Virus record (IMG/VR): IMGVR_UViG_3300047552_000676
Location: 6,116-70,115 of that record
Source of the DNA: a virus
Direction: 5' to 3' (one strand)
DNA: 64,000 nt
The translations under genes were made by a program, and so were the position numbers. Of this stretch, positions 2,217-63,503 are shown in pieces. The notes beneath the pieces are model-generated. The model was given only the letters and a program-made list of their open reading frames with translations. It was not told the DNA's origin and made no database searches. How positions within the stretch are numbered: position 1 is the first letter of the stretch; each line of letters starts with the position of its first letter.

Positions 2217-3551
2217 CTACTCAGTTAAATCAGGTTTGAAGCCGCCCTTAGCCTTCTTGCCCGTTTCCTTCTTAGCTTGAAGATGCTTGCGCTCTTCTTC
2301 GCTAAGGTCTTTTACCTTCATCTTCGTATATAGAATCTTGAGAGTGAACGGCATGTCACTCTGGTTACGGCTCTTTGGTTGCTCGAAGTGCAACAGACCT
2401 TGTTCTTTAGATTCCTTGTTTGCTACAGCGAACCACGCTAGAGAAGCATGTTCTTTAACCATCTGACTGTAACGCAGTTTGCCTTCTTCGTTAACTTGAA
2501 CCAGCATGACAACTACTTTGTTATGAGCGTCAGCCCACTGCTTTGCAAAGCGAGCAATCTGCCCCATCTTTCTCCACTGATCATCACCATCCGCGTCTTT
2601 CAACAGGCCAAGATAGTCGATGTAGATAACGTCAGCTTTATAGGACGAAAGGGAAGCCAAGAGCTCCTGAATAGTCAGGTCTTCTTTTGGCTTAAAGATG
2701 GTGTATCTGCCCCCGCTCTCTCGAATCTTGCGATCAAGCTTCTTGAAGCGCTTGAATGCTACATCTTTTTCGCCTGTGGCTAGACGCTTAAGAAAGATGT
2801 CTAGGCTGTTAAGCCCTGAAGCGTTGGAAATAGTACGCGACACCATCTCGATGTCGGTCATTTCTAATGGCACTAGAACAGTCTTGTAACCACGCTTTGC
2901 CTGATTGGTACTTATCTGGTTAGCAAGGATAGACTTACCGCCCCCACTGTTCAAGCCTATCAGCACAAGTGAGCCGCGTAGAAATCCACCATTAACGGCG
3001 TCGTATGAATCGAAACCCGTAGGGATTACGTTATCGGTGTTTGGGCTGTAGATGATGTCCTTTACGGTATCCATCACGTTGGAGTCTTTACCAATGTGTA
3101 ATACCGTAGCTTCGGAGGCCCTTTTGAGCTGGATCATAGCCATCGCTTTGGCTACCATATCACTCAGCTCTTCTACATCGATGGAGGGATTCTCTAGGTG
3201 TTTGTGAATACCTTTAGACAGCCTGTAGTAAAGGCGGGTCTGGCGATAACGATTAAGAACCTCCACAAGCTGGATAGCTTGTGTCATCTTCTTAACAGGG
3301 GCTTCTGCGTCCTTCAAAAAGTCACGAGTTTCTTCCGTGAGCTTTACATCCTCACATAGAAGTTTGAACGCGGGAGGTTCACCTTTCTTTGTGAAATAGT
3401 CGTGGATCTTTTTGAACGCCTCTTGGCTTTCTTCCAGATGAAAATACGAAGCGTCCAGACTAGATAGTAACGCACCACTAACCTTGATGTTTTTAGAACA
3501 GATGGACCTCAGCGCTCGCGCTTCAGTTACTGCGTTAAATAGCTTTGCGAT
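2217..3551 (-). CDS. dnaB: DnaB-like replicative helicase (probable ATC start at 3551)
   Basis: Motifs IPTGF, GLNSGGGKS, LEM, IYIDYLGL, LVQVN. The frame stays open 78 codons upstream of the ORF-track TTG, to GGAG-N7-ATC GCA AAG CTA. Confidence 0.85.
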   Translation of the reverse strand: MAKLFNAVTEARALRSICSKNIKVSGALLSSLDASYFHLEESQEAFKKIHDYFTKKGEPPAFKLLCEDVKLTEETRDFLKDAEAPVKKMTQAIQLVEVLNRYRQTRLYYRLSKGIHKHLENPSIDVEELSDMVAKAMAMIQLKRASEATVLHIGKDSNVMDTVKDIIYSPNTDNVIPTGFDSYDAVNGGFLRGSLVLIGLNSGGGKSILANQISTNQAKRGYKTVLVPLEMTDIEMVSRTISNASGLNSLDIFLKRLATGEKDVAFKRFKKLDRKIRESGGRYTIFKPKEDLTIQELLASLSSYKADVIYIDYLGLLKDADGDDQWRKMGQIARFAKQWADAHNKVVVMLVQVNEEGKLRYSQMVKEHASLAWFAVANKESKEQGLLHFEQPKSRNQSDMPFTLKILYTKMKVKDLSEEERKHLQAKKETGKKAKGGFKPDLTE

Positions 3552-3670
3552 TTTATTTCTCCACCAATTTTATACTGTACGTCTGTACTGAAAAGACCGG
3601 CCAGTCCTGACAAGCTCGTATCTTGTCTAGGTACATACGTATACCCCCATAGTATACGAGACTATTCACA

Positions 3671-4147
3671 ATGGCTAATTCAAAACCACTAGATCTAAAA
3701 TATCTCAGAAAATTCATTCTTTCGGGAATGAAAAATAAAACTCTTACAAAGACATCCATACTAAGACTCTTAAAGAACCGACATCCTATTTGGGACCTAG
3801 TGAGATCAGACAACAAGATTGGTCTTAATGTCAAACTTCTATACGACAAACTTTCTATTCCAGAAGGTTCCTGTAAGGTGTGTGGAAACCCTACCGGTCT
3901 TAATAGGGCTATTTACTATGATCACTGTAGTGATTCCTGTGGAAACAAGTCTAAAAACCGTATTGAACGGAGCATGAAATCTAGACAACACTCAAAATTT
4001 CACATTTTGAACTCTCGCGGCGAAGTGAAAGATCGATCGCACAACTTTCCAAATCTCAGACGCAAGATACTCTCTATGGTAAATGGGGACTCCCCAGATT
4101 GTTCCCGTATGAGTTTTTCTAGATATCTAAAAAGAATTATCCACTAG
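3671..4147 (+). CDS. N-terminal zinc-binding part of a putative free-standing homing endonuclease
   Basis: CKVC...CSDSC motif; K/R-rich, AT-rich, opposite strand to neighbours; appears frameshifted into the next ORF. Confidence 0.6.
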   Translation: MANSKPLDLKYLRKFILSGMKNKTLTKTSILRLLKNRHPIWDLVRSDNKIGLNVKLLYDKLSIPEGSCKVCGNPTGLNRAIYYDHCSDSCGNKSKNRIERSMKSRQHSKFHILNSRGEVKDRSHNFPNLRRKILSMVNGDSPDCSRMSFSRYLKRIIH

Positions 4148-52451: not shown

Positions 52452-52525
52452 TGGTAGCCCCTACAAGAATCGAACTTGTGTATCCGCCGTGTAAAAGCGA
52501 TGTTCTACCATTGAACTAAGGGGCT
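52452..52525 (-). tRNA. tRNA-Val(TAC)
   Basis: Cloverleaf, loop TTTACAC, encoded CCA. Confidence 0.85.
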
Positions 52526-52531
52526 GAAAAT

Positions 52532-52608
52532 TGATGGGAAGGGCTGGATTCAAACCAGCGACGCAAGCCTTATAATGGACTCCGCTCTATCAACTGAGCT
52601 ACCCTCCC
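52532..52608 (-). tRNA. Aberrant tRNA or tRNA pseudogene with 8-nt anticodon loop (CATTATAA)
   Basis: Intact acceptor, D and T stems, but T-loop TTTGAAT, 3' end TCA and 8-nt anticodon loop. Confidence 0.6.
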
Positions 52609-52614
52609 GAAATC

Positions 52615-52688
52615 TGGAGCGGGAAACGGGAATCGAACCCGTGTCATTAGCTTGGAAGGCTAAGGTTCTACCATTAAACTACTCCCGC
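52615..52688 (-). tRNA. tRNA-Gly(TCC)
   Basis: Canonical cloverleaf, T73, CCA. Confidence 0.95.
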
Positions 52689-52693
52689 AAGAA

Positions 52694-53125
52694 GTGGTCG
52701 GTTCTTACACAGACCCCCAGCAAGACTTGCGTCTAACTAGAGGTGACCGACCTTGCGAGGGCCTTCACTTCACTGGATCGGTATCACCAGAAAGATCCGG
52801 GGCTCCCCCGCTCACTGGCTCAGGCACGCTGAGCGAACAGACTGTCGTTGGCAGTTGCTTGCTTTGCTTGGTATTTCATCTTGCTTCGTTTCCTCCACAA
52901 GACGAGGGCTCCGCTTGCCCTAGCAGTTCATCTCAGTGTTCTCATCCCCGTCGAAACCAGGACTGGCCCACCTAAGGATACTCAAGGTCGCTACTGACAT
53001 AAAAGTATCATACTTTGTTAGGCGTATGAACTCAGGAATATCCTTAGGTGGACCAGGCGAGAGTCGAACTCGCGTCCGGAAACAATTACACTTCGATTCT
53101 GGCAGGATTCACGCCCTGCCTACTG
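52694..53125 (-). ncRNA. ssrA: Circularly permuted (two-piece) tmRNA, tag (A)ANDSLFAQRA
   Basis: Acceptor piece ends GCGAG-TTCGACT-CTCGC-CTGGTCC-A at 53049. A hairpin intervening segment spans 52970-53048. The coding piece starts GGGCCAG..TTTCGACGGGG at 52969, giving a G3-U70 pair. Tag at 52820-52852. Outer boundaries approximate. Confidence 0.9.
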
Positions 53126-53187
53126 CCATCTGAACTTATTTACAATGTTTTCAAGTGACTACTGCTGTGACTGCAGAAGTCAGCACC

Positions 53188-53379
53188 TTGATTCAAGAAA
53201 AGATTACTCTAAGGATTAGAGTCTTGACTAGAGCATTAATTCTTCGTGGCATCGGACAACAGACCTCCGTCGTGGATAGGCTGTCTAGCTCACCTATCCC
53301 TCGTAAGCGTCTGTGCCTACTTTATCCGTTGACTATCTCGTTGGCCTAACGATTTGAGAGTAATCTTATCTCGAATCAA
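53188..53379 (-). ncRNA. Rod-shaped ncRNA of about 190 nt (6S-like topology)
   Basis: About 22-bp closing stem, large central bubble, nested stems CGGATA/TGTCCG, ACAGAC/GTCTGT, GGATAGG/CCTATCC. Confidence 0.55.
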
Positions 53380-53381
53380 CA

Positions 53382-53458
53382 TGGCGCGACCAGAGGGAGT
53401 CGAACCCCCGACCCACATCTTAGAAGGATGTTGCTCTATCCGGCTGAGCTATGGTCGC
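53382..53458 (-). tRNA. tRNA-Arg(TCT)
   Basis: Canonical cloverleaf, CCA. Confidence 0.95.
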
Positions 53459-53463
53459 AAGAT

Positions 53464-53550
53464 TGGTGCGGGTGAGAGGACTCGAACCTCCACGCTATTT
53501 CTAGCGCCAGACTCTAAATCTAGTGCGTCTACCAATTTCGCCACACCCGC
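53464..53550 (-). tRNA. tRNA-Leu(TAG)
   Basis: Type II cloverleaf, CCA. Confidence 0.95.
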
Positions 53551-53567
53551 AAATTTTGCGAAGCACT

Positions 53568-54155
53568 CTAAGAGTTTTTAAGACTCAGAGGCTTCAAGCT
53601 TATAACTGCAAAGGTTCTTAGATGACCTTCGTCAGAACCCCACAGTTCTGAACTAAACTCTTTCACATCATCCATGGACGACAGCGGTAGTAGCCGAACA
53701 GGAGTGCTGCGTCGGTCGAGGTAATAGGCGTATCTATCTGGGCGATCAAAGCTCTTCCTCAGCATCGACTGCCAAAAGGTTTTGCCTAGATCTGTCTGCT
53801 GAGTATCAGAGATTAGAGCGGTGTATTTTGGTAGTAGAATCTCATTGAAAACGTGCTCTGCAAACCCCGAAGCCTTGGGTTCTGAGTAGTACCGCCATAA
53901 AAGAACTTGACGACCTAATCGAAAACCATTTGCACGAACTTCCTTATGGCGTACCAAATACACCACTTTCTCGTCAACCACCAGAGCCACATATCCAATG
54001 TTCTTGTCACCGAAGGAATAAACCTTTTCGCCTTGGTATAACTCCAAGGGGGTGGGGGCGCTCTTACCTTTCTTATAGATTAGAGAGAGGACGTACAGAA
54101 TAAGGCTATCGCCTAAATTAGGAATTATCTTAGTGGCCTCTATTTCATTCGACAT
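53568..54155 (-). CDS. GNAT-like hypothetical protein (paralog of 56369..57040)
   Basis: ISDTQQTDLGKTFW motif. Confidence 0.55.
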   Translation of the reverse strand: MSNEIEATKIIPNLGDSLILYVLSLIYKKGKSAPTPLELYQGEKVYSFGDKNIGYVALVVDEKVVYLVRHKEVRANGFRLGRQVLLWRYYSEPKASGFAEHVFNEILLPKYTALISDTQQTDLGKTFWQSMLRKSFDRPDRYAYYLDRRSTPVRLLPLSSMDDVKEFSSELWGSDEGHLRTFAVISLKPLSLKNS

Positions 54156-54165
54156 GAACTAATCC

Positions 54166-54492
54166 TTAGTCTTTAGAAGGATTCTTTGGCAGACCAGTGT
54201 TTGTGAACTCACCCCAATTCATTAACAGTGTTGTCCCCGACATATACTCTTTGTGATTCAGGCTTCGATAAGTGCCACGATTTAGACCTTCACCACGTAC
54301 TGCAATGATGAACGGAACAGAGTTTGTCTTCTGGGTCATTCTGCGAAGAGAACCAACTGAGATTTGCTTTTTGCGGAGTTGTCCATCGTATGGACCGCCT
54401 TGAAAGCGAAGGGAAACTACTACGTCAGTCACAGTGTTATGTACGAACTGGATCAGGGAACTTAAACTTTTCTTGCAGGATCTGCACCACAC
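54166..54492 (-). CDS. Hypothetical protein
   Basis: FQGGPYDGQ motif; start uncertain. Confidence 0.5.
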   Translation of the reverse strand: MWCRSCKKSLSSLIQFVHNTVTDVVVSLRFQGGPYDGQLRKKQISVGSLRRMTQKTNSVPFIIAVRGEGLNRGTYRSLNHKEYMSGTTLLMNWGEFTNTGLPKNPSKD

Positions 54493-54742
54493 GATCGATC
54501 AGCGGTCGATCAGCGGTCCAGAACTCTATCATTAAGTAGGTAGGGTCCACCGACTGGAAGAACAAATGAGACCTACGAAACTCGTTGCTGAACTCCGAGT
54601 TCGACCATTGCGTTTGGCTATTGCAGAACGCTATGACCTTCTCGTTGAAGTTAGTCAACGACTCCTCTGTAGAGTGAAAGGTCAGACAGACACCCTTCAT
54701 AGGCATTGACCCGAGACGGATCGCTACGTTGTCGAAATTCAT
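54437..54742 (-). CDS. Hypothetical protein
   Basis: MNFDNV start with upstream GGGG. Confidence 0.5.
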   Translation of the reverse strand: MNFDNVAIRLGSMPMKGVCLTFHSTEESLTNFNEKVIAFCNSQTQWSNSEFSNEFRRSHLFFQSVDPTYLMIEFWTADRPLIDRVVQILQEKFKFPDPVRT

Positions 54743-54766
54743 TTTTGAAATCCCCATTAGATTTGA

Positions 54767-54790
54767 TGGTGCGAGCGGCGGAAATCGAAC
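54767..54790 (-). pseudogene. 3' fragment of a tRNA (T-loop, acceptor strand and CCA only)
   Basis: GTTCGATTTCCGCCGCTCGCACCA with no 5' half. Confidence 0.7.
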
Positions 54791-54791
54791 A

Positions 54792-54876
54792 TGGTGGGCG
54801 GTGAGAGACTCGAACTCTCACACCTTTCGGCGTCTGAGCTTAAATCAGATGTGTCTACCAATTTCACCAACCGCCC
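54792..54876 (-). tRNA. tRNA-Leu(TAA)
   Basis: Type II cloverleaf, CCA. Confidence 0.93.
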
Positions 54877-54909
54877 TATTGTTAACGACTACGTCTAGAC
54901 TCGCGACGA

Positions 54910-55113
54910 TTATTCTAAGACACGGATCTCAACTGAAGCTACTCGACATCCAGACGACTTCAACTTTGACCATTCTTTTGCGCCATAGAAGTTCGCGGCC
55001 CACTCTTCTACTTGTTCCTTACTACTCCGCGTAGAGTAAGGTAGAACTTGATTATAGTCGTTCACGATAGCCGCCGCCAACCTAGTGATAGGTTGCTCTT
55101 TGGGGTTTTTCAT
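54910..55113 (-). CDS. Hypothetical protein
   Basis: 67 aa ORF between tRNAs. Confidence 0.5.
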   Translation of the reverse strand: MKNPKEQPITRLAAAIVNDYNQVLPYSTRSSKEQVEEWAANFYGAKEWSKLKSSGCRVASVEIRVLE

Positions 55114-55149
55114 TCATGAATCATGCAGTGTGAATTCATTGTTAGTAAG

Positions 55150-55235
55150 TGGTCGGAGTGATAGGATTCGAACCTACGGGGCTTTCGCACTGCGTCCCAA
55201 ACGCAGCCCGCTACCTGACTACGGTCTACACTCCG
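55150..55235 (-). tRNA. tRNA-Pro(TGG) with atypical long variable region
   Basis: CGGAGTG acceptor, CTGCG-TTTGGGA-CGCAG anticodon arm, 12-nt variable region; 86 nt. Confidence 0.85.
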
Positions 55236-55246
55236 ACTGAACTCTA

Positions 55247-55432
55247 TTAGTCCCAGTAATCCGGCTTTGCCCGCTCACGAGGTTCCAACCTATCGAGTTC
55301 AGATTGATTACCGCGAACCAGAGAACGGATAAACATATTGAACTCTCGCCGCAACGGGCGAATCTCAAACAGATTGGTAAACCAAGAGGGTGCACCACGA
55401 CGGTGCTTGGGACGAAACTTTGACTTGCTCAT
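55247..55432 (-). CDS. Hypothetical basic protein
   Basis: AGGAG RBS, PSWFTN motif. Confidence 0.55.
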   Translation of the reverse strand: MSKSKFRPKHRRGAPSWFTNLFEIRPLRREFNMFIRSLVRGNQSELDRLEPRERAKPDYWD

Positions 55433-55502
55433 GTGATGCTCCTAGGTATTTAGCCTAAAGCCTCACGACCTCCATCACGCAAGGTGTTCTCCTTTGATCA
55501 GG

Positions 55503-55868
55503 TTACGCTGGCGTCCGAGAGTAATCGAACACGGAGTTCGGAATTCTCCGATAGCCATCGGAAGTCAAGGCATAAACCCTAACCTCTGTTTTAGCCTGTC
55601 GGACTATTTGTTCAAAGTCCATGATGTAAAAGGATTGCGACCCAAACATCGTGTCCAAAGCCTGGAACTGAACTTTGTAGTTATCTTTCACTTGGTAACG
55701 ATGCTCGACGATTTCGCATTCAACAATCTCTTCAGGCTGAGACGATGAAGTAAAGGCAATGCCTGGAATGATGCCCACGAACTCCAGGCGCTGCATCGGT
55801 ATGAAGAACCGTAGATTCTTGACTCCATACTCGGACACTAGGTTGGCTAGGCGCATGTCACTCTCCAA
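55503..55868 (-). CDS. Hypothetical protein
   Basis: 121 aa ORF. Confidence 0.55.
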   Translation of the reverse strand: MESDMRLANLVSEYGVKNLRFFIPMQRLEFVGIIPGIAFTSSSQPEEIVECEIVEHRYQVKDNYKVQFQALDTMFGSQSFYIMDFEQIVRQAKTEVRVYALTSDGYRRIPNSVFDYSRTPA

Positions 55869-56253
55869 AGAAATGCTTCGAACGTTCCTGGATAACCTTC
55901 AAGCTGCCTTCGCTGAGGGCAGTCAGCACATGACCATGTATAAAGACATCGCCTCGATAATGCATGCCGTCACATTCTACTACAGACCGTCTTCCGATCT
56001 CGACGGCGTTGGTGAATTCTTTCAGCGTAGAGAAAGTGAGATCGTACAAAGGCGTACCATCGCAGTCACGCGTGTGTTTGCACACATAGAGGCGGAGCCC
56101 GTTGTCTTCGTAGTAAACTTCCCGATGGATGTCGTACTCTAGGATCTCCACCAGAGCACCAATGGGTATGCTGTGCTTCACCTGCAGATTTTCTTGCCGA
56201 CCGGTCAAGCCTGTCTTGGGATTGACGATGTCTGAAACGAACACTACGCTCAT
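55858..56253 (-). CDS. Hypothetical protein
   Basis: HSIPIGALVE...RDCDGTPLY motif. Confidence 0.6.
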   Translation of the reverse strand: MSVVFVSDIVNPKTGLTGRQENLQVKHSIPIGALVEILEYDIHREVYYEDNGLRLYVCKHTRDCDGTPLYDLTFSTLKEFTNAVEIGRRSVVECDGMHYRGDVFIHGHVLTALSEGSLKVIQERSKHFFGE

Positions 56254-56282
56254 ATCAAGTTCCTTTAACTTGGTGGTGAAAA

Positions 56283-56359
56283 TGGTGGGACCAACAGGGC
56301 TCGAACCTGTGACCGATCGATTATGAGTCGACTGCTCTAACCAACTGAGCTATGGTCCC
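56283..56359 (-). tRNA. tRNA-Ile2(CAT), lysidine type (Met not excluded)
   Basis: GGGACCA acceptor, CGA-CTCATAA-TCG anticodon arm typical of Ile2. Confidence 0.85.
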
Positions 56360-56368
56360 AGAAGACGA

Positions 56369-57040
56369 CTAAGACTTCCGCTTATGGGCGATAGCGAATC
56401 GCCAATTCAGTCCTGAATCGTCTTTGTTAACTTCGTAAGTCCAGTACTTCTGGAGCGAAGTATCCTTTGCTAGGGGAACTACCTCGGTCACTTTCACTTT
56501 GGACCCAGTCTCAGAGAAGTGACAAGCATAGGCGCTGTACCCACGAATCTTGGCTTCGTGAAGCCTACGCTCCCAGAAAGCTTTTCCAGCTTGGCTCTGG
56601 ACGGAGTCAGAGAACCAGTTCTTTCTCTGGGAAAGTTTCCAGAACACATCTGCTACGAAAGTCTGACCTAGAGTTTCTAGCGCCCTCGCGCTACGCCAGA
56701 CTGACCCCTGATATATCGAAAAGGCGTTAAACTGCGAAACGATTTGCGAGTCTACCGCCGAGTCGAAAGTAAACCTCAGAGGGTTTAGGTGCATTAAATA
56801 GTCTAGCTCATTGAGCTGAGTATCTACTGCGTAGAGCCAGAGTCGGTTGTTGGTATCGATGGATACTCGAAATTCAACCCACGAGGCTTGTGGCTGAGGC
56901 GGGGACTGAATGACTTTACTGTTTCTCGTCTGTTCGACGATAAACCTGTGTTGAGATTGCGGGGTCTTCACAATCTCAGGGATGTAATCGGAGGCCCTCA
57001 CCATAGACATGGCGACAAGAGGGGACTTAGAAGTCGTCAA
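56369..57040 (-). CDS. GNAT-like hypothetical protein (paralog of 53568..54155)
   Basis: FSDSVQSQAGKAFW motif. Confidence 0.55.
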   Translation of the reverse strand: MTTSKSPLVAMSMVRASDYIPEIVKTPQSQHRFIVEQTRNSKVIQSPPQPQASWVEFRVSIDTNNRLWLYAVDTQLNELDYLMHLNPLRFTFDSAVDSQIVSQFNAFSIYQGSVWRSARALETLGQTFVADVFWKLSQRKNWFSDSVQSQAGKAFWERRLHEAKIRGYSAYACHFSETGSKVKVTEVVPLAKDTSLQKYWTYEVNKDDSGLNWRFAIAHKRKS

Positions 57041-57282
57041 GGTAGAAGCCTTCTACAGAAGGGATAGAATCCTTCTACAGAAGGTTTCGGGCGACCACTG
57101 CCAGAGCAGCACGCTAGACAAGGACCTACTGCGGTGTAGTCGAGGACTGGATCTCCGTAGACCGGAGCGTACCTCTTTCGTGTCCCGTTGCACTCGTCGC
57201 ACCCTGGAGTGTACTTCTTGCGAACGAAACTATTTACAGCTTTCACTTCAGCTTCAACTTGCTCACGAGTCATCTTGTTCAC
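57037..57282 (-). CDS. Small zinc-ribbon protein
   Basis: CDECNG...CLAC. Confidence 0.5.
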   Translation of the reverse strand: MNKMTREQVEAEVKAVNSFVRKKYTPGCDECNGTRKRYAPVYGDPVLDYTAVGPCLACCSGSGRPKPSVEGFYPFCRRLLP

Positions 57283-57310
57283 TTTTACCTCGACTCCATA
57301 GCTAAGGGGG

Positions 57311-57507
57311 TCACAATGCTAGTTGATGCACTCTACCATGTTTCCTAGAGGGTCCAGCTCTAGGCTGCCATACTACCCAGGTAGATAGGTACGCACCGAG
57401 ATTTTACTTCTTAGTACAGCCACGTCTTGGACACGTGACATAACTCCTGACCGGGAAGTAGGACTGACTCGTTGCGATTTTCGCTCGTGCATCAACTAGC
57501 ACTATGA
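57311..57507 (-). ncRNA. Multibranched ncRNA of about 200 nt, unknown class
   Basis: 21-bp closing stem (57311-57331/57487-57507) enclosing several hairpins; just 3' of tRNA-Ser. Confidence 0.6.
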
Positions 57508-57523
57508 TAAATCAACTAGAGGT

Positions 57524-57613
57524 TGGCGGAAACGGTGAGATTCGAACTCACGAACGAGTTACCTCGTTATCGGTTTTCAAGACCGAGGCATTAAACCACT
57601 CTGCCACGTTTCC
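57524..57613 (-). tRNA. tRNA-Ser(TGA)
   Basis: Type II cloverleaf, G73, CCA. Confidence 0.95.
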
Positions 57614-57709
57614 GTTTTCTACCGCGGTTTCCAACCCTCTCCGAGGTAGGTGTAAAGTGCAAACTGTGCCATGTTTACTTCAGGGTTAGGTTTTACTTTG
57701 CGGTAGTTT

Positions 57710-57738
57710 ATTGTACCACAGATCCCACAAAAATGCAA
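57710..57738 (-). promoter_or_regulatory. Sigma70-type promoter driving the RNA island
   Basis: TTGCAT-17-TACAAT with extended TG; flanks nearly identical to the promoter at 52023-52051. Confidence 0.85.
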
Positions 57739-57748
57739 GGAGTATTTC

Positions 57749-57822
57749 TGGTGCCCTGTGACTGAATCGAACAGTCGGGGGCGGCTTACAAAACCGCTCG
57801 TTTACCACTAACGGAACAGGGC
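57749..57822 (-). tRNA. tRNA-Thr(TGT)
   Basis: Cloverleaf, loop TTTGTAA, CCA. Confidence 0.88.
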
Positions 57823-57856: not shown

Positions 57857-58348
57857 CTAAAATTGTAGTGCAGCGGCGGAAGGCACCATGATGTCGCTAA
57901 ACTTTACAGGACCCTTTCGATTGAGAGTACTGAACATACGCCAGTTCATCTCATGAAGGAAATCCCGGCCAAGAAGCGTATCAATCACTTCTTTGTTCAA
58001 ACACTTTGACATCTCGTCAACGACTGTCTGGTAGACCGGCGACGCTGGATTAACACCCCGATAGATGTGATGCACTTGTTGCTTTGTCAACCTGTCTGGG
58101 TGCTTGATGATGAACCGATACAGCAACAAATCCTTTATGGCTTGGATGCTGCGAGGCTCGATCAGAGCAGGCGTCAGCGTGATCTCCACCATGTCGACTA
58201 CGTCAGTGCGGTCGCTAAGAAAGATCACGCGCTTCCATTTTCCAAAATGAGGCAAGTGCATAAGAACAAGCTCACCTTTGAACAGGCGATTCGCGTGTGT
58301 CACACGATGCCACGTGAGCGGAGGACACTTGGGTTCGATTCTGTTCAT
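57857..58348 (-). CDS. Hypothetical protein
   Basis: 163 aa, overlaps the gyrA stop. Confidence 0.55.
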   Translation of the reverse strand: MNRIEPKCPPLTWHRVTHANRLFKGELVLMHLPHFGKWKRVIFLSDRTDVVDMVEITLTPALIEPRSIQAIKDLLLYRFIIKHPDRLTKQQVHHIYRGVNPASPVYQTVVDEMSKCLNKEVIDTLLGRDFLHEMNWRMFSTLNRKGPVKFSDIMVPSAAALQF

Positions 58349-60282
58349 AGCTTTGCGAAGCCGTCTAGCTGAGATAGCAAGAAAGAAGTTGGTGACTTCT
58401 TGCGCTTCTCAAGCGTAGCCTTGTTTGCTTCGACCTCCTTCTTCTTAGCTTCCAACTCTTTCTGATCCAGCTTACGCAGACTGATGATGGGACGCGAAAG
58501 AACGTACTTGGCTTCCTCCGGAGTACATTTACACTTCTTTGCATACGCCTGATAGACTTCGTCCGTGGACAGCTTGGCGTTCTTCAACAGAGTGACAATG
58601 AAGTCGATCAGATTGACCGCTTGGATAAGCAGATCCAGCCTACGAATCTCCCGGTTGTCCTCTTTGATCCAGTACTCACAGGCTTTACGCTCAAGAGCAA
58701 CTCGCCACACTACCCAGCGGTTGATCATGTCGGTCACAGAGGCTGCAAAGGCTTTCGCTGCACCAAGACCATCCTTGTCGACATATCGCTCAGTGAACGT
58801 CAACACGTAGGACTCTGACGCTGTGAGCACCTTACTGATTGCCTTGACTACTGCGTCTTGCTTGGCAAAGGAAACGCTTTTCTCCAATTGGATAAAAATC
58901 TTGCCGTACTTGTCTTCCTTACCAGAATCGTCACGGGCAGACTTCACTCCCTTGATGGATAGAAGGGCCTCCAACAGCTTGGGGATTTCGGTATCGCGAG
59001 CAAAGGTTTCAACAACGACAGTGGCCTTGTCTTGGTTGACAGACATACCTGACTTGATCACTACCCTACCCTGAGGCGTACTGAAAAGAGCCTTGCGGGC
59101 TTCCTTTTCATCCTTCGTTACAGGCGGAGCTTCCATCCCACCATAAGTTGAGCGAATCTTCAAAAGCTTTTCCAAAGCTTTCGGTTCCGCTGGAGAAACG
59201 AAAGCAATCTTTAGGGCTTCGATCAAAGATTTGCGCGTGAAGATAGGTACGTTAGTAGTGATACCCGGAGCCATACCAAAGCGACCTGTCAGCAAAGCAA
59301 GAGGCAGCAGTGCAGGTAGAACCAGTGGCTCTTTGGTGGAACCATCATAGTTTGGTACGAACTCGATGACCGGAGTGTAGAACTTGTTGAACACAATCTC
59401 GTCAGCAAACTTGCTAAGACGAACCTCGGTGTACCGCATTGCTGCGGCACCCTTTTCGGAGAGCGTTCCCCAATTACCTTCACCCTTGAACATCGGAGTG
59501 TAGCTCCGCGTGTTGGTCATCTTCACCATTGCTTCGTAGCAACTGGAGTTGTGAGCTACGATCAGGGTCCGTTGCCCGTCGCTACGGAGTCCCGTAGAGA
59601 TAAGCATGTTTTCGTAGCCATCTACCGTGAAGTCGTACATCGGCTTGGCTGACGTCTGCCTATTTATTTCGATCTTCGTCACAGATACTACAGGGGCTGG
59701 GATTCTGGTTAGTCCCCCGAACTCTGGCTTAAGTCCACATCCAATAAGATGAGTACCCACCTGTAGACTTTCTGTCTTTAACCAACCATTTTCTGCAGTG
59801 AGAAATTGATGATTGGAAGTAGCCTCCACTTTACTACCATCCGATAGATGGATTTTATACGTTTCGCTAGCTTGCTGCCCAACTCTCCACGAGTGAGCAA
59901 ACGCGTGAACGTAAGCGTTAGTGGACTTGTCATACGCTAAGATCTTTCGTGGCCCTCTACCAACTAGCGAAGAAATCTTTACGAAATTACCAGACAGCAG
60001 ATAGACCTCAGTATCTCCATCCAGGCAATCTCCGTGCGGATGGAATCTACCGAGGGTCTCACCGACTACACGGGCTGACTTCACAGGCTTGCCGTTGTGG
60101 CGTAGACCTAGACCATGGGCAGCCCACAGCAGTCTACGATGCACCGGAGCCATACCATCTGCGTAGTCTGGAAAGGCTCTATCCTCGATAGTAGCCATCG
60201 CGTACTCAAAGTAATTCTTCTTTGCAAAAGGTAGGAGGCCTACCTCTTTAACCCACCCCGTGGATTTGGAATCTTTTGTCAT
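58345..60282 (-). CDS. gyrA: Type IIA topoisomerase subunit A (GyrA/ParC-like, no CTD) containing an intein
   Basis: DGMAPVHRR, KSARVVG, FHPHGD, GNWG, AAMRYTE, PNYDG. Confidence 0.93.
   Translation of the reverse strand: MTKDSKSTGWVKEVGLLPFAKKNYFEYAMATIEDRAFPDYADGMAPVHRRLLWAAHGLGLRHNGKPVKSARVVGETLGRFHPHGDCLDGDTEVYLLSGNFVKISSLVGRGPRKILAYDKSTNAYVHAFAHSWRVGQQASETYKIHLSDGSKVEATSNHQFLTAENGWLKTESLQVGTHLIGCGLKPEFGGLTRIPAPVVSVTKIEINRQTSAKPMYDFTVDGYENMLISTGLRSDGQRTLIVAHNSSCYEAMVKMTNTRSYTPMFKGEGNWGTLSEKGAAAMRYTEVRLSKFADEIVFNKFYTPVIEFVPNYDGSTKEPLVLPALLPLALLTGRFGMAPGITTNVPIFTRKSLIEALKIAFVSPAEPKALEKLLKIRSTYGGMEAPPVTKDEKEARKALFSTPQGRVVIKSGMSVNQDKATVVVETFARDTEIPKLLEALLSIKGVKSARDDSGKEDKYGKIFIQLEKSVSFAKQDAVVKAISKVLTASESYVLTFTERYVDKDGLGAAKAFAASVTDMINRWVVWRVALERKACEYWIKEDNREIRRLDLLIQAVNLIDFIVTLLKNAKLSTDEVYQAYAKKCKCTPEEAKYVLSRPIISLRKLDQKELEAKKKEVEANKATLEKRKKSPTSFLLSQLDGFAKL
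59548..60027 (-). mobile_element. Mini-intein (160 aa, no endonuclease) in gyrA
   Basis: HPHGD|CLDGDT...ATSNH...YDFTV...VAHN|SS. Confidence 0.92.
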
Positions 60283-62180
60283 GACACTCCAAACAGCTTC
60301 TTACGGTAAGAAGTATTTTCGCCAATCAATAGTTCAAACTCTTTCGAGTCTTTCTTGTCAGCTGCAACAAGTTTGTAGAGCTTACGAGTAGCAGGGTCAA
60401 GGGCAACGTGCCACAGGTCTTCTTCGTTGACTTCACCCCAACCTTTCAGGTGACTGATGTCAACGTTCTCTGTCCCAGCCTTCTTGTAGACCTCTTCTTT
60501 GGTTTGAGCAAAGATTACTTTATCGCGATGCCTTGCTTTGTAGCGAGGAGCCTTGACGACGTAGAGGTTTCCGTTCTGAATTAGGTGAGGCAAGAACTTA
60601 TAGAACGCGCCTGACATCAGGACGTTAATATGAGCGCCGTCGACATCCGAGTCGGCAAACAAAATGACCTTGCCGTAGAGTGTTGGCTTCGCGTCCTTAC
60701 CATTTACACCTAACGCTGAAAGAAGGCCAGTGATTTCAGCGTTGTCGTTGATCTTTTCTTTCTTGGCTGTCAACACGTTCATAGGCTTGCCTCGCAACGG
60801 ATAGACAGCTTGGAAGGTCTTGTCTCGCGCACGCTTGAGACCGCCACCTGCGGAGTCACCTTCTACAATCAACAGTTCGCGTTTTTCCACTGGAGTCTTG
60901 CTGCTGGTGATTGCAGCTAACTTGGTAGCAACGCGTCTCGCTGAAGACTTGACGTTCTTGATAAGAGTCTTGTCCTTGCGGAAGTCAGTAGTCCGATCGT
61001 TGAGCAGAGTTGCTCGCTCAATGATCTTGAGCGCGAAGTCTTTGTTCGCCTTCCAAAACTTTTCCCAAGCGGGAACGAGCTCTTCAACCATTGGTCCATG
61101 CACTCGCTCGTCAACAAGCCGATCCTTAGGTTGGTTAGAAAACTTCGGAGCGGCCAGCTTGCAGTTGACGAGGCCGAGAAGGCCATCAGCCACATCAGTC
61201 TTCGTAAAGGGCCACTCCTGTTTGGCTTTCTTCTTGCCTTTGGACTTGACCGGCTTCATGTACTTCTGCAGCGACTTGAACATCGAATCCAGAAGAGCCT
61301 TGAAGTGTTCACCCCCGTCCTTATTGAAAAGCCCGTTGGTATACGACGAGATGTTACAGCCATCTGCATCTGTAAAGGCTACAATGATAGAAGACAGCTT
61401 TGAGTTGTGTTGAAAGACGGGTTCGTCAGCTTTGACATCCATCTCCTGGATGCGTCTATCCAGGTAGTCCAGCAGACCTCGCTCGTGCTTTAACGTAAAG
61501 GTCTTGCCTTTAGCGTTGGTGAACTCGACAACGATACCAGGAACAAGGTACGACGTAAGACTGCACCAAGACTGCAGATCAGGCAGGTTGATCTTGGATT
61601 CTTTCTGGAACAGCGATAGGTCAGGCTCCACATAGATGATGGAGCCTTTGGTGTGCTTGATCCCATGAGGTAGCTTCGGTGGGGATTTTACCTTGTAAGG
61701 CTCCTTGTGTAATCGAGCGTCTTTGTACTCGATGCACCACCACTGCTTGTCTCGGAACGTCCACACGATAAACGACTTCGACATCGCATTGGTAGCCTTG
61801 ATGCCGATGCCGTGAACACCACGACTGATGGTATCCCCGGAAAAGTTTGCCCCAGCATGGGTGAGACCGGTGGTTACGTAGAAGGTTGACAACTTTTCCT
61901 TGTCCCCCTTCTCGGTCATAAAGGTCTTTACACCAACGGGGAACCCTGGACCCTTGTCCAGAATCCAGTATTGGTTAGGCTTATCACCGTAGACAACATG
62001 AACGTAGTCGTTGTCACCGGCGAGAGCTCTATCCACTGCGTTGTCTGCGGGTTCACGAAGGATGGTAAGCAGGCCATCGCTGTCGTTCGGGCCTATGTAG
62101 GGGGTCGGCCTTTTTCGAATACCCAAAAGCCCAGCATATCGCTCGATCGAACTCTCGTCGTATTTTTTCTTTTCTGTCAT
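60279..62180 (-). CDS. gyrB: Type IIA topoisomerase subunit B (GyrB/ParE-like)
   Basis: EPADNAVD, HAGAN, GVHGIG, EGDSAG, PLRGK, DSDVDG, KGWGE. Confidence 0.95.
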   Translation of the reverse strand: MTEKKKYDESSIERYAGLLGIRKRPTPYIGPNDSDGLLTILREPADNAVDRALAGDNDYVHVVYGDKPNQYWILDKGPGFPVGVKTFMTEKGDKEKLSTFYVTTGLTHAGANFSGDTISRGVHGIGIKATNAMSKSFIVWTFRDKQWWCIEYKDARLHKEPYKVKSPPKLPHGIKHTKGSIIYVEPDLSLFQKESKINLPDLQSWCSLTSYLVPGIVVEFTNAKGKTFTLKHERGLLDYLDRRIQEMDVKADEPVFQHNSKLSSIIVAFTDADGCNISSYTNGLFNKDGGEHFKALLDSMFKSLQKYMKPVKSKGKKKAKQEWPFTKTDVADGLLGLVNCKLAAPKFSNQPKDRLVDERVHGPMVEELVPAWEKFWKANKDFALKIIERATLLNDRTTDFRKDKTLIKNVKSSARRVATKLAAITSSKTPVEKRELLIVEGDSAGGGLKRARDKTFQAVYPLRGKPMNVLTAKKEKINDNAEITGLLSALGVNGKDAKPTLYGKVILFADSDVDGAHINVLMSGAFYKFLPHLIQNGNLYVVKAPRYKARHRDKVIFAQTKEEVYKKAGTENVDISHLKGWGEVNEEDLWHVALDPATRKLYKLVAADKKDSKEFELLIGENTSYRKKLFGVS

Positions 62181-62188
62181 GAGCACCC

Positions 62189-62716
62189 TTACAGAGTACC
62201 GATTAAGATACCTGAACTATGAAGAAGATTGCCATAGCCTTCGACGCACACTGAGTAGAAGGCGCGTGGCTCGATCGCTCGTTGCTTGGCTTTCATAACG
62301 CTGATGCTTCCAGGCTTCGTTCTACCCAGGAGGTTCTTGTGAGCGTGCTTCACCCCACCATCTTCGGGGGCAAAGATCTTGTCACCAGCCTTGAGGTCAC
62401 GAGCACGGCAGTACAACAGACCGCTGCTGTCCTTGATTACTGCCCGAGAATCCAGGGGGCTGAGGCCAGTCAAAGGCAACATGGCGTTTAGAGAGCAGTC
62501 CACCTTGTCACCGTTGGCCAGCTGAACAGAGACATATTGAGTGGCGTGTTCAACAAGCCGTGCAGCTTTGGCTTCTACAATGCAGAAGGCATGACCATTC
62601 CACCCGATAGACTCGTAAGTTGCGTTCAGGGACTGATCAAGGTCTTGAAGTTGGGTATTGACCCAATCCCTTTCAGGATTCTTTACAACGATCGGGGTTT
62701 TCCCATCGAAGGCCAT
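62189..62716 (-). CDS. Stand-alone Hint (intein-like) protein lacking splicing residues
   Basis: Aligns by eye with the gyrA intein blocks, but has Ala1, no TxxH and no terminal HN. Confidence 0.75.
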   Translation of the reverse strand: MAFDGKTPIVVKNPERDWVNTQLQDLDQSLNATYESIGWNGHAFCIVEAKAARLVEHATQYVSVQLANGDKVDCSLNAMLPLTGLSPLDSRAVIKDSSGLLYCRARDLKAGDKIFAPEDGGVKHAHKNLLGRTKPGSISVMKAKQRAIEPRAFYSVCVEGYGNLLHSSGILIGTL

Positions 62717-62717
62717 G

Positions 62718-63431
62718 TCAAGTACCTTGATGCAGAAGGATGAAGAAGGAAAGCATCTCTTCGATGGAGGAGGGCTTCAGGTTTTTGATGGGGAACGAAC
62801 GCACAACAGTCTGTGACCAGTTGTCACCGAGTTTATCCTCGAAAGCTAGGTGGATCAGGTTGTCTCCTGACGCAGATTGCTTACGAGTGAATTCCACACG
62901 ACAGGTTGGGGATAGATAAAAGTATTTGGTTACAGGGGACTTCGGGCTCAACCCGAAGTAGAACGAAGGCATGATGCTTTCGTCAGGGACGAACAACAGC
63001 TTGAACATCTTGTAGCCGGTGTTTTCCTTGGTCTTGATCACGGTACGAATACCGTAGCGACCAATCAGTTCTTGCATCTGGCTGATACGCATCTGTATGT
63101 AGCGATCAGCGCCCTGAATTTCTTCAGGATCCAGCATCTTAGAGATGCCGATTAGAATCGAATTGCCGTCGCAGTTCGTTTCGATGCCTTCTTTCGGAAG
63201 TTTAGAAAGAAAGCGGTCACGCATCTGGGGCCAGACGTTAGACCACGGGTGTACGTTAATCTTTACCTTTTTCAGCAGCGTCGATCTCAACAAGTCCAGA
63301 GTCTGGGCCTTGATTCGAAAGACCGTGACCTGATGGTCACGCAAGATATGGTACGACGCTTCGTCGAGGCAAAAGTATTCGCCACGAAATTTCACTAGGT
63401 CCACACTGACAGCAGAAGGATTGGTTGACAC
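62718..63431 (-). CDS. Hypothetical protein
   Basis: 237 aa, GTG start with AGGTG RBS. Confidence 0.6.
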   Translation of the reverse strand: MSTNPSAVSVDLVKFRGEYFCLDEASYHILRDHQVTVFRIKAQTLDLLRSTLLKKVKINVHPWSNVWPQMRDRFLSKLPKEGIETNCDGNSILIGISKMLDPEEIQGADRYIQMRISQMQELIGRYGIRTVIKTKENTGYKMFKLLFVPDESIMPSFYFGLSPKSPVTKYFYLSPTCRVEFTRKQSASGDNLIHLAFEDKLGDNWSQTVVRSFPIKNLKPSSIEEMLSFFILLHQGT

Positions 63432-63503
63432 AGGTCACCTGAGTTAAAAGAGTAAAGGAAAATGGGATTGGTCGCTCATACCAACCAACCCCAATTGAAT
63501 CAT

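Follow-up and report, generated by a model that had tools for sequence, protein, structure and literature searches.

Inteins are usually viewed as pure parasites, persisting by obligatory splicing from essential proteins. What, then, is the role of an intein-like frame that stands as a gene of its own, bare of exteins, beside a phage topoisomerase gene? Such a gene lies on the minus strand (62189..62716) of the window, the whole 64,000-nucleotide stretch of DNA analyzed here, which comes from a large uncultured phage. It is an ATG-started ORF of 175 amino acids that carries intein blocks A, B, F and G in one chain, and we refer to it as the stand-alone Hint gene. The preliminary description, made from the letters of the DNA, had reported an intact ORF without exteins and tightly packed with its neighbors, and this was confirmed: Met1 stands directly before block A, the stop codon comes one residue past position G:7, and the gene sits between ORF237 (62718..63431, minus strand), whose TGA ends 1 nt before the Hint-gene ATG, and gyrB. 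The latter encodes a gyrB-like topoisomerase II large subunit (60279..62186, minus strand; Pfam DNA_gyraseB, Toprim and GyrB_C; PHROG 543, E 1.4e-120). From the Hint-gene TAA there are 2 nt to the gyrB GTG and 8 nt to an ATG at 62180; start context and the N-termini of relatives indicate that this ATG, placed behind an AAGGG that overlaps the Hint-gene stop codon, is probably the true gyrB start. Downstream lies the gene of a gyrA-like topoisomerase II subunit (58345..60282, minus strand; Pfam DNA_topoisoIV 1.7e-62, Intein_splicing 1.4e-10), which contains one mini-intein. The Hint gene had also been described as heading this operon, a position that it does not hold: ORF237 ends one base ahead of it, and the sole nearby terminator-like hairpin (63463-63493, minus strand; 12 pairs and a T run, called by a consensus scan only) lies 5' of ORF237. 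This hairpin is a possible boundary of a transcription unit ORF237-Hint-gyrB-gyrA.

The genes flanking the Hint ORF are in other reading frames, and its flanks contained no GyrB-extein remnants (best tblastn of GyrB against them, E 0.43) and no flanking repeats. Searches with Pfam, PHROG, NCBIfam and PADLOC recognized no nuclease gene adjoining it in the window. At third codon positions its GC content (GC3, 0.562) is near that of gyrB (0.596). Contigs from two DNA runs of one sample, one run being a possible source of the window, agree with it at every position of 58300-63500 and do not count as independent support; a contig of 1268 bp among them covers the gyrB start, the Hint ORF and ORF237. 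They yielded no polymorphisms for a pN/pS test. ORF237 had no match in Pfam, PHROG, NCBIfam, PADLOC or the ESM Atlas. For its homologue P0037, which is 64% identical, and for the Hint homologue P0002 alike, the longest contig measures 2795 bp, which suggests a shared contig and that both genes probably travel together in a relative. If this is one contig, the identities (42% for the Hint ORF against P0002, 64% for ORF237 against P0037) mean that the Hint gene evolves faster than ORF237.

The fold of the protein was predicted with AlphaFold2. The single sequence gave an unusable model (pLDDT 32); from a 15-sequence alignment, the model reached a pLDDT of 92 and a pTM of 0.87. Foldseek found 56 matches for this model in the PDB at E<=1e-3, nearly all of them inteins or other Hint domains among the matches listed, led by the Ssp DnaB mini-intein 6frg (E 3.1e-8, TM 0.70/0.77). 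The top BFVD structure was the GyrB of phage BcepSaruman (E 5.4e-10), and the structure rows from the ESM Atlas were intein-bearing proteins, with small viral clusters carrying Hint families as leads. Sequence profiles pointed the same way: the profile of the stand-alone family matches inteins of known structure (that of Pab PolC at E 9.3e-4) and nine of 15 family members match Pfam Intein_splicing (PF14890) at E<=1, the best at 2.4e-6. The ORF taken alone fell below the cut-off for this Pfam family (E 0.22), gave only a chance ribosomal protein with phmmer against the PDB (E 0.46), had no match in NCBIfam or PADLOC and found just weak matches of unknown function in PHROGs. Tblastn against 50,697 phage records returned no match for it or for its homologue P0012, and a word-indexed protein search recovered the ORF itself alone, or three of ten known members when the family profile was used. 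By its predicted fold and its blocks A, B, F and G the 175-aa protein belongs to the Hint (Hedgehog/intein) superfamily, as had been proposed. It is not a split-intein fragment: all four blocks and the whole predicted fold are in one chain, with no exteins. The Hint fold is shared with the GyrA intein of the window and with the solved class 1 mini-inteins 6frg, 1mi8 (Ssp DnaB), 4e2t (Pho RadA) and 1am2 (Mxe GyrA), the structural matches reaching TM 0.6-0.7 by query length, and their blocks can be aligned; unlike the 175-aa protein, these are catalytically complete, embedded and of another lineage. Bacterial intein-like (BIL) domains (6y75, 6tmm, 2lwy) also have the Hint fold, but rank below inteins with Foldseek (16, 25 and 26), and no sequence link to them was found. 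BIL domains are autoprocessing parts of larger proteins.

The reported replacement of the splicing residues stood up to alignment (all positions on the minus strand). Position A:1 is occupied by Ala2 (62711..62713), right after the initiator Met, leaving neither an N-terminal nucleophile nor an N-extein; P0002, the closest homologue, also begins M-A-F. Positions B:10 to B:12 read A78-M79-L80 (62477..62485), and F:4 is Ser155 (62252..62254), where embedded GyrB inteins have Cys and the GyrA intein of the window has Asp. Thr174, at G:7, and Leu175 (62192..62197) are followed by the stop codon in the place of the intein terminal Asn and the +1 nucleophile, with no C-extein. In this way the ORF lacks an in-frame insertion, a first-step nucleophile, the B:10 His and the terminal Asn/+1 pair of a functional intein. 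The loss extends to the family: F:4 is never Cys in the ten stand-alone members (five Ser, four Thr, one Tyr), the B:10 His is present in one and the G:7 Asn in none. The signature of class 3 inteins is Trp at B:12, Cys at F:4 and Thr at G:5 (WCT, as given in the available text of PMC7891396), and the ORF, with Leu80, Ser155 and Ile172, is therefore not a class 3 intein. Because it has no exteins, the protein can neither splice nor cleave anything. A Ser at F:4 is chemically conceivable as a nucleophile, yet there is no N-extein to attack.

Where did this gene come from? The preliminary description had matched it block by block to the GyrA mini-intein of the same window (59548..60027, minus strand; 160 aa, GyrA residues 86-245, HPHGD/C...AHN/S, with slashes at the junctions), which carries all the class 1 residues (Cys1, TSNH, Asp at F:4, His-Asn/Ser). 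The match itself was reproduced, with BLASTP aligning ORF residues 42-170 to GyrA residues 126-232 (25% identity, E 9e-6 in a single comparison) and MAFFT in agreement; the kinship that it implied was not. An exhaustive HMMER search of a library of 1.8 billion proteins returned 18 proteins at E<=1e-3, namely the ORF itself, nine further stand-alone proteins, five phage GyrB proteins and one GyrB fragment in which the domain is embedded, P0005 and P0017. The match to P0005 (3697 aa) falls into 11 stretches; P0017, of 268 aa, is internally repetitive and looks low-complexity. Inteins at the Toprim site of GyrB were the closest to the Hint ORF by sequence (E 1.5e-9 to 1.2e-4). Furthermore, in a tree the ten stand-alone members and eight GyrB inteins formed one group (92/88) with the GyrA intein of the window outside it, and uniting the ORF's trio and that intein in one clade was rejected (p-AU 0.007). 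A single origin of the ten stand-alone members was not rejected (p-AU 0.059), so that we make no claim of multiple births, although the best tree splits them.

The GyrB inteins compared, those of BcepSauron and BcepSaruman (Burkholderia), phiRSL1 (Ralstonia) and the metagenomic GyrB proteins P0006, P0008, P0009, P0015 and P0018, resemble the 175-aa protein in size (166-179 aa) and blocks, and share non-catalytic core motifs with it (W18, the WNG motif, LK.GD, K142 and N163). Unlike it, they are embedded and keep the A:1 Pro, B:10 His, F:4 Cys and terminal Asn plus Cys. Their junctions follow D.D.DG/P...N/CHI in all eight GyrB proteins showing both ends, and Pro is at A:1 in 7/7 aligned inteins with an N-terminus, P0016 being cut off there. 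His is at B:10 in 8/8 and Trp at B:12 in 4/8, Cys is at F:4 in 8/8 (9/9 counting locus L004, described below) and G:5 is Ser in seven and Thr in one; from these residues they look like class 3 inteins. The inteins of BcepSauron, BcepSaruman and phiRSL1 are unannotated in the records examined, which name the topoisomerase only. In the window the corresponding gyrB site is empty (Gly517-Ala518 in FADSDVDG/AHINVL; 60633..60638, minus strand), where related phages read DPDPDG/P...N/CHIN. All these data strongly support a mini-intein of the kind found at the phage GyrB Toprim DxDxDG/C site as the ancestor of the stand-alone gene.

The preliminary description had looked to homologues persisting in relatives, an expectation that held in one part and failed in another: the homologues are not decaying, and the gene is absent from the two closest relatives of the window. 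The stand-alone family comprises the window ORF and nine metagenomic proteins (172-210 aa) that are 23-42% identical to it in the alignment, and all ten frames are open. In a neutral simulation with substitutions only and no indels, a frame stayed open in 18/1000 runs at 42% identity and in 6/1000 at 30%. In addition, 32 proteins from JGI, ENA, Logan and NCBI make up the P0014 cluster; 14 of the 15 listed are 206 aa long, and the changes among them are mostly conservative. A more distant stand-alone cousin (QXV74182 in RHEph12) is present in all five RHEph12-group phages of Rhizobium; its dN/dS of 0.08-0.19 applies to this cousin only. The stand-alone gene thus seems to be kept by selection, and retention of a complete predicted Hint fold over long divergence points to a protein that is, most likely, produced and under selection.

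The relatives without the gene are genomes G001 and G002, respectively 100% and 93% complete. Their GyrB shares 55-58% identity with that of the window, and neither had a Hint-gene homologue anywhere at E<=1; the gene is also absent from a further relative, G003. Absence from close relatives marks it as an accessory gene rather than a core one, and its lack in the two near-complete genomes argues against the proposal that the protein is a core accessory subunit of the topoisomerase. The Hint gene adjoins gyrB in both family loci seen, upstream of it in the window and 39 nt downstream of it in L004, a locus with no gyrA in view. The gyrB Toprim site of L004 is occupied, beside the stand-alone gene, by an HNH-bearing intein of another branch. 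In 11 IMG/VR loci whose gyrB contains an intein, no stand-alone copy lay within 8 kb, and in RHEph12 the cousin gene lies about 26 kb from gyrB. Viral contigs searched with P0002, P0003, P0021, P0007 and an alignment of P0007 and P0012 gave no true locus, L004 was the sole locus in metagenome contigs, and genome contigs searched with P0012 gave none. L003, on a terminase contig of high GC content, proved to be a chance match and was dropped. Upstream of gyrB, RHEph12 has an ORF of 170 aa and locus L010 has ORFs of 141 and 142 aa, none of them similar to the Hint ORF or ORF237. An annotated HNH gene lies just upstream of gyrB in phiRSL1, and loci L009 and L010 have variable inserts between gyrB and gyrA.

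Our preferred reading, to which we give a probability of roughly 0.6, is that the 175-aa protein is a former intein retained for binding rather than catalysis, perhaps in connection with the topoisomerase. On this reading, a copy of a GyrB Toprim-site mini-intein became a separate gene beside gyrB and lost catalysis, with the F:4 nucleophile replaced by Ser, the B:10 His by Ala, and the terminal Asn and +1 Cys gone. Any activity that remains would be binding and not catalysis, and its putative partner is either GyrB itself or the stretch of gyrB DNA that surrounds the vacant intein site. The packing of ORF237, Hint gene and gyrB, the overlap of AAGGG with the stop codon and the gyrB adjacency in L004 make phage topoisomerase II the likeliest setting. 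The complex prediction for GyrB and the 175-aa protein scored 0.00, which speaks neither for nor against binding. A bolder form, in which the exapted, nuclease-free intein is a working phage factor acting on topoisomerase II, either by binding GyrB or by binding the Toprim-site DNA and shielding it from, or steering, the homing nucleases of competitors, is tentative and we regard it as rather doubtful.

Alternatively, the gene could be a relic devoid of function: a copy of an intein, or the Hint portion of a homing element without exteins that once targeted gyrB, would have come to lie beside gyrB, become inactive and now be heading for deletion. Its sporadic occurrence, with absence from G001, G002 and G003, the loss of every catalytic residue, and the apparently faster divergence of the Hint ORF than of ORF237 would all fit such an end, and the gyrB/gyrA region is a hot spot of mobile elements (the gyrB inteins, the HNH regions of L004 and phiRSL1, the inserts of L009 and L010). 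There is also a precedent in Arth_1007 of Arsp-FB24, described in the available text of Tori and Perler 2011 (PMC3196547) as an inactive class 3 intein pseudogene of phage origin, which like the window gene is without the F:4 Cys and B:10 His and has almost no exteins (66 aa in Arth_1007). However, Arth_1007, as presented there, is one degenerate copy within the remains of a prophage, whereas here there are at least ten diverged intact genes with a confident predicted fold and signs of purifying selection. The ten lineages, 23-42% identical and all with frames still open (172-210 aa), are hard to reconcile with the 6-18 open frames per 1000 of the simulation, which did not even include indels, and a fold signal giving a pLDDT of 92 from 15 sequences, the conservative changes in the P0014 cluster, the low dN/dS of the Rhizobium-phage cousin, a GC3 now in line with the genome and flanks free of extein remnants also weigh against decay, so that we consider a relic unlikely.

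Another reading is that of a homing-site factor. In some intein endonucleases DNA binding is aided by the splicing domain, and a dead Hint domain might likewise recognize the empty Toprim-site DNA of gyrB, shielding it from intein or HNH nucleases of co-infecting phages or aiding a nuclease in trans. The gyrB site of the window is empty with the Hint gene adjoining, relatives have HNH-bearing or HNH-accompanied inteins at exactly that site, and nine of the ten family members are mildly basic (pI 8.3-9.3). Yet the surplus of charge is slight and the pI values of embedded inteins fall in an overlapping range, L004 combines an occupied site with a stand-alone gene, and the window has no recognized nuclease gene beside the ORF; we judge a homing-site factor to be quite improbable. 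Less credible still is the idea of the preliminary description that the protein regulates or chaperones the splicing of the GyrA intein in trans. Both elements do occur in one gene string, both have Hint folds and both are missing from the four relatives checked, but they belong to different intein lineages (p-AU 0.007) and the GyrA intein, with its complete class 1 set, needs no helper by its sequence. In addition, L004 has its family member beside a gyrB with an intein of another branch and no gyrA in view. The GC3 of the GyrA intein (0.469, with 0.51 and 0.57 in its exteins) against 0.562 in the Hint gene weakly suggests that this intein arrived later than the stand-alone gene. On these grounds, and given the absence of the GyrA intein from 4/4 relatives, a role as splicing regulator is very unlikely. 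The decoy role that the preliminary description also put forward gained no support.

Returning to the ex-intein kept as a binding protein, a near published parallel, besides Arth_1007, is in yeast, where HO and WHO are separate genes derived from inteins that no longer splice, according to the available text of Coughlan et al. 2020 (PMC7282813). As described there, WHO elements adjoin their target gene; the Hint gene adjoins gyrB in the two loci seen, but the RHEph12 cousin lies about 26 kb from it. HO and WHO keep their nuclease and cut DNA, whereas the 175-aa protein, of bare mini-intein size, has nothing inserted between blocks B and F and matched no nuclease family. Our literature search on stand-alone dead inteins in phages found no publication. 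In the available text of Gosselin et al. (bioRxiv 10.1101/2025.01.02.630785) the term 'free-standing' is used of homing endonucleases only, and that of a jumbo-phage review (PMC7824862) has one mention of inteins and none of such genes.

What has already been published, as far as the available text of these sources goes, is one decayed pseudogene, that of Arth_1007, and the HO/WHO genes of yeasts, which carry a nuclease. If the exaptation reading is true, the window gene would be the first intein domesticated for a role that is neither catalytic nor that of a nuclease. The link to GyrB Toprim-site inteins offers a dated source for such a recruitment, and the Rhizobium phages of the RHEph12 group offer a cultured system with a related gene. 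The 'hypothetical protein' entries beside phage topoisomerase genes include ex-inteins, and a bare intein fold long kept without splicing residues or nuclease would show that the Hint scaffold can be recruited for other phage uses.

The stand-alone intein gene (Hint gene; 62189-62716, minus strand) lies in a tight string of minus-strand genes within a 70,115 bp IMG/VR virus record of freshwater metagenome origin, estimated to be 29% complete. The string opens with a 237-aa ORF (ORF237; 62718-63431) and continues after the Hint gene with a gyrB-like gene (60279-62186; Pfam DNA_gyraseB, Toprim and GyrB_C; PHROG 543, E 1.4e-120) and a gyrA-like gene (58345-60282; DNA_topoisoIV, 1.7e-62, plus an Intein_splicing match), ORF163 being the last listed. 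The preliminary description had put the 175-aa ORF at the head of a gyrB-gyrA operon; however, ORF237 ends one base before its ATG and a terminator-like hairpin lies upstream of ORF237, with none such upstream of the 175-aa ORF itself, so the Hint gene is second in the string. The ORF is intact, and its tight packing was borne out by that single base and by its TAA, which is contained in the AAGGG preceding the likely gyrB start (ATG at 62180). A weak AAGG ribosome-binding site stands in front of the ORF. Additionally, the longest contig with a homologue of ORF237 (64% identical) measures 2795 bp, as does that of P0002, a stand-alone Hint homologue; from these equal lengths, the two genes probably travel together as a pair. 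A short way downstream, past the topoisomerase genes, lie ten clustered tRNA genes (Val, Ile, Gly, Arg, Leu x2, Pro, Met, Ser, Thr) at 52452-57822 (minus strand), together with a tmRNA-like gene (52729-53138, minus strand; tag ANDSLFAQRA) flagged '*' by ARAGORN.

Taken alone, the 175-aa ORF gave a weak match to Pfam Intein_splicing (E 0.22) and no intein match in a phmmer search of the PDB. BLASTP against the neighbouring GyrA, a single-pair comparison, returned E 9e-6 and paired the same blocks that had been aligned earlier with the gyrA mini-intein. An exhaustive HMMER search of 1.84 billion representative proteins (cut-off E<=1e-3) yielded 18 proteins: the ORF, nine further stand-alone proteins (172-210 aa), five phage GyrB proteins, one GyrB fragment and two others. 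The family profile also matches solved inteins by sequence, and Pfam Intein_splicing touched 9 of 15 family members. With 15 family sequences AlphaFold2 reached a pLDDT of 92 and a pTM of 0.87, versus a pLDDT of 32 from the single sequence. A Foldseek search of the PDB with this model gave 56 matches at E<=1e-3, and among the matches listed nearly all, including the Ssp DnaB, Pab CDC21-1 and Pho RadA inteins, were inteins or other Hint domains; the best match in the viral structure library was GyrB of Burkholderia phage BcepSaruman (E 5.4e-10). These models establish, as far as prediction can go, that the 175-aa protein has the anticipated Hint fold.

The catalytic positions of this protein are occupied by Ala2, Ala78, Leu80, Ser155 and Thr174, after which only Leu and the stop codon remain, and none of the ten stand-alone proteins has GyrB sequence at either end, in agreement with the earlier statement that exteins are missing and splicing residues replaced. 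Position 4 of block F (F:4) is Ser (5), Thr (4) or Tyr (1) and never Cys (0/10), the His of B:10 is kept in one of the ten, and the Asn of G:7 in none (0/10). Judging by these residues, the ten proteins cannot splice, and in the 175-aa protein no segment precedes block A that could be cleaved away. Comparison of P0033 with P0014, both of the P0014 cluster, shows a cluster member whose start is placed at an internal Met, 25 residues further in and immediately ahead of block A. Wrongly called start codons may thus explain the long N-terminal 'leaders' of some members of the stand-alone family.

GyrB proteins carry the same domain too, always in the Toprim acidic motif (D.D.DG|P...N|CHI; 8/8 with both junctions). 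GyrB of BcepSauron and phiRSL1 carry this intein, and their records annotate only 'topoisomerase'. In the aligned embedded set, which includes the fragment P0016 lacking its N-terminus and leaves out the GyrB of contig L004, the inteins start with Pro (7/7 with the N-terminus present), have His at B:10 and Cys at F:4 (8/8 each), Trp at B:12 in four of eight and Ser (7) or Thr (1) at G:5, and end in Asn followed by Cys. Class 3 inteins are recognised by an internal F:4 Cys and the lack of an N-terminal nucleophile (PMC7891396), and because the GyrB inteins show both features we call them putatively class-3-like. A maximum-likelihood tree of 24 Hint domains united the ten stand-alone proteins and eight GyrB inteins in one group (support 92/88), leaving out the GyrA intein of the window and three other inteins of the same GyrB proteins. 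Within it, the 175-aa protein formed a trio with P0002 and P0003 (98/99), and two other stand-alone proteins were sister to one embedded intein (98/90). In AU tests, both weakened by groups named after the tree was seen, a clade of the trio and the GyrA intein was rejected (p 0.007), and one common origin for the ten stand-alone proteins was not rejected (p 0.059). The kinship with the gyrA intein implied earlier is thus not upheld; as far as sequence comparison reaches, the tree shows that the Hint gene descends from the GyrB Toprim-site intein lineage. The corresponding site in the gyrB of the window, FADSDVDG|AHINVL, is uninterrupted and therefore empty. Three metagenomic phage GyrB proteins each hold a second intein at another site, in the ATPase region in P0006 (487 aa) and after the GDSAGG/GDSAAG motif in P0008 and P0015, so one phage topoisomerase subunit can hold two intein lineages. 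GC3 in the GyrA mini-intein (59548-60027, minus strand; 160 aa, HPHGD|C...AHN|S) is 0.469, below the 0.51 and 0.57 of its own exteins, and the intein is absent in 4/4 relatives checked, which suggests a fairly recent arrival.

In the alignment the other stand-alone members share 23-42% identity with the ORF, and all ten frames are open. Under neutral drift simulated for the ORF of the window, with random substitutions only, frames stayed open in 18/1000 runs at 42% identity and 6/1000 at 30%. P0014 represents 32 near-identical sequences from four data sources; 14 of 15 listed members have 206 residues, and the 39 variable sites show mostly conservative changes. Judged by GyrB, the closest relatives in culture are Rhizobium phages of the RHEph12 group (48.7% identity). 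Their genomes (5/5) contain a stand-alone Hint gene that is more distantly related (hhalign probability 95.5%; pairwise dN/dS 0.08-0.19) and whose product, like the 175-aa protein, starts Met-Ala directly at block A. These data show that reading frame and fold have long been preserved. Decay or absence of homologues had been named as evidence against a domesticated Hint protein: the ten open frames show no decay, and some relatives do lack the gene. No Hint homologue was found near gyrB in three IMG/VR relatives (GyrB 51-58% identical), nor anywhere at E<=1 in the two of them that are near-complete (100% and 93%), and the gene is not a core gene.

In the two family loci that could be read, the window and L004, the Hint gene lies beside gyrB (2/2), with one site empty and one occupied: in L004 it lies 39 nt downstream of gyrB, and there another intein, with an HNH-like stretch recognised by eye and not by family search, fills the Toprim site (438 aa; GyrB at 1-1950). 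Two related ORFs follow there (2697-4056), one with a KilA-N domain (E 1.1e-5). No stand-alone copy occurred within 8 kb at 11 IMG/VR loci whose gyrB has the Toprim-site intein (0/11). Mobile elements visibly insert in the gyrB/gyrA neighbourhood. In phiRSL1, ORF332 (locus L014, 2887-3429), annotated as an HNH endonuclease with AP2 domain, is separated by 12 nt from the gyrB with its intein, which follows downstream, an arrangement that would suit trans homing of a nuclease-free mini-intein. A 429-aa ORF in L024 (6857-8146) opens with a piece that fits the Hint profile at its C-terminal end alone, followed by a complete Toprim-site intein; gyrB may here be divided at a second intein, a split one. 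The gyrB-gyrA spacer is about 1.6 kb with several small ORFs in L009 (9890-11480), where the 154-aa ORF directly after gyrB had no Pfam match, about 0.85 kb in L010 (9848-10690) and about 0.1 kb in L011; in the window the two genes overlap.

Our literature search, exact phrases included, found no paper on inteins that lack a nuclease, are catalytically dead and are kept as stand-alone genes, and small uncharacterised phage Hint-fold proteins are present in public structure and sequence sets. In this search, the closest published cases are the decayed intein pseudogene Arth_1007 (PMC3196547) and the HO/WHO genes of yeasts (PMC7282813), which bear a nuclease, unlike the Hint gene of the window. 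A functionless relic resembling Arth_1007 is the main rival explanation, and the sporadic distribution fits it, but against it stand the preserved open frames, the strong fold signal and, in the RHEph12-group cousin gene, a low dN/dS. Least likely is the suggestion of the preliminary description that the protein helps GyrA intein splicing, since the two Hint domains differ in lineage and, judged from its sequence, the GyrA intein is complete. The tight gene string, the AAGG before the gene and the likely gyrB ribosome-binding site over its stop codon suggest that the Hint protein is made, and it would act by binding. Our best guess is that its role is tied to the phage topoisomerase II or to the gyrB intein site.
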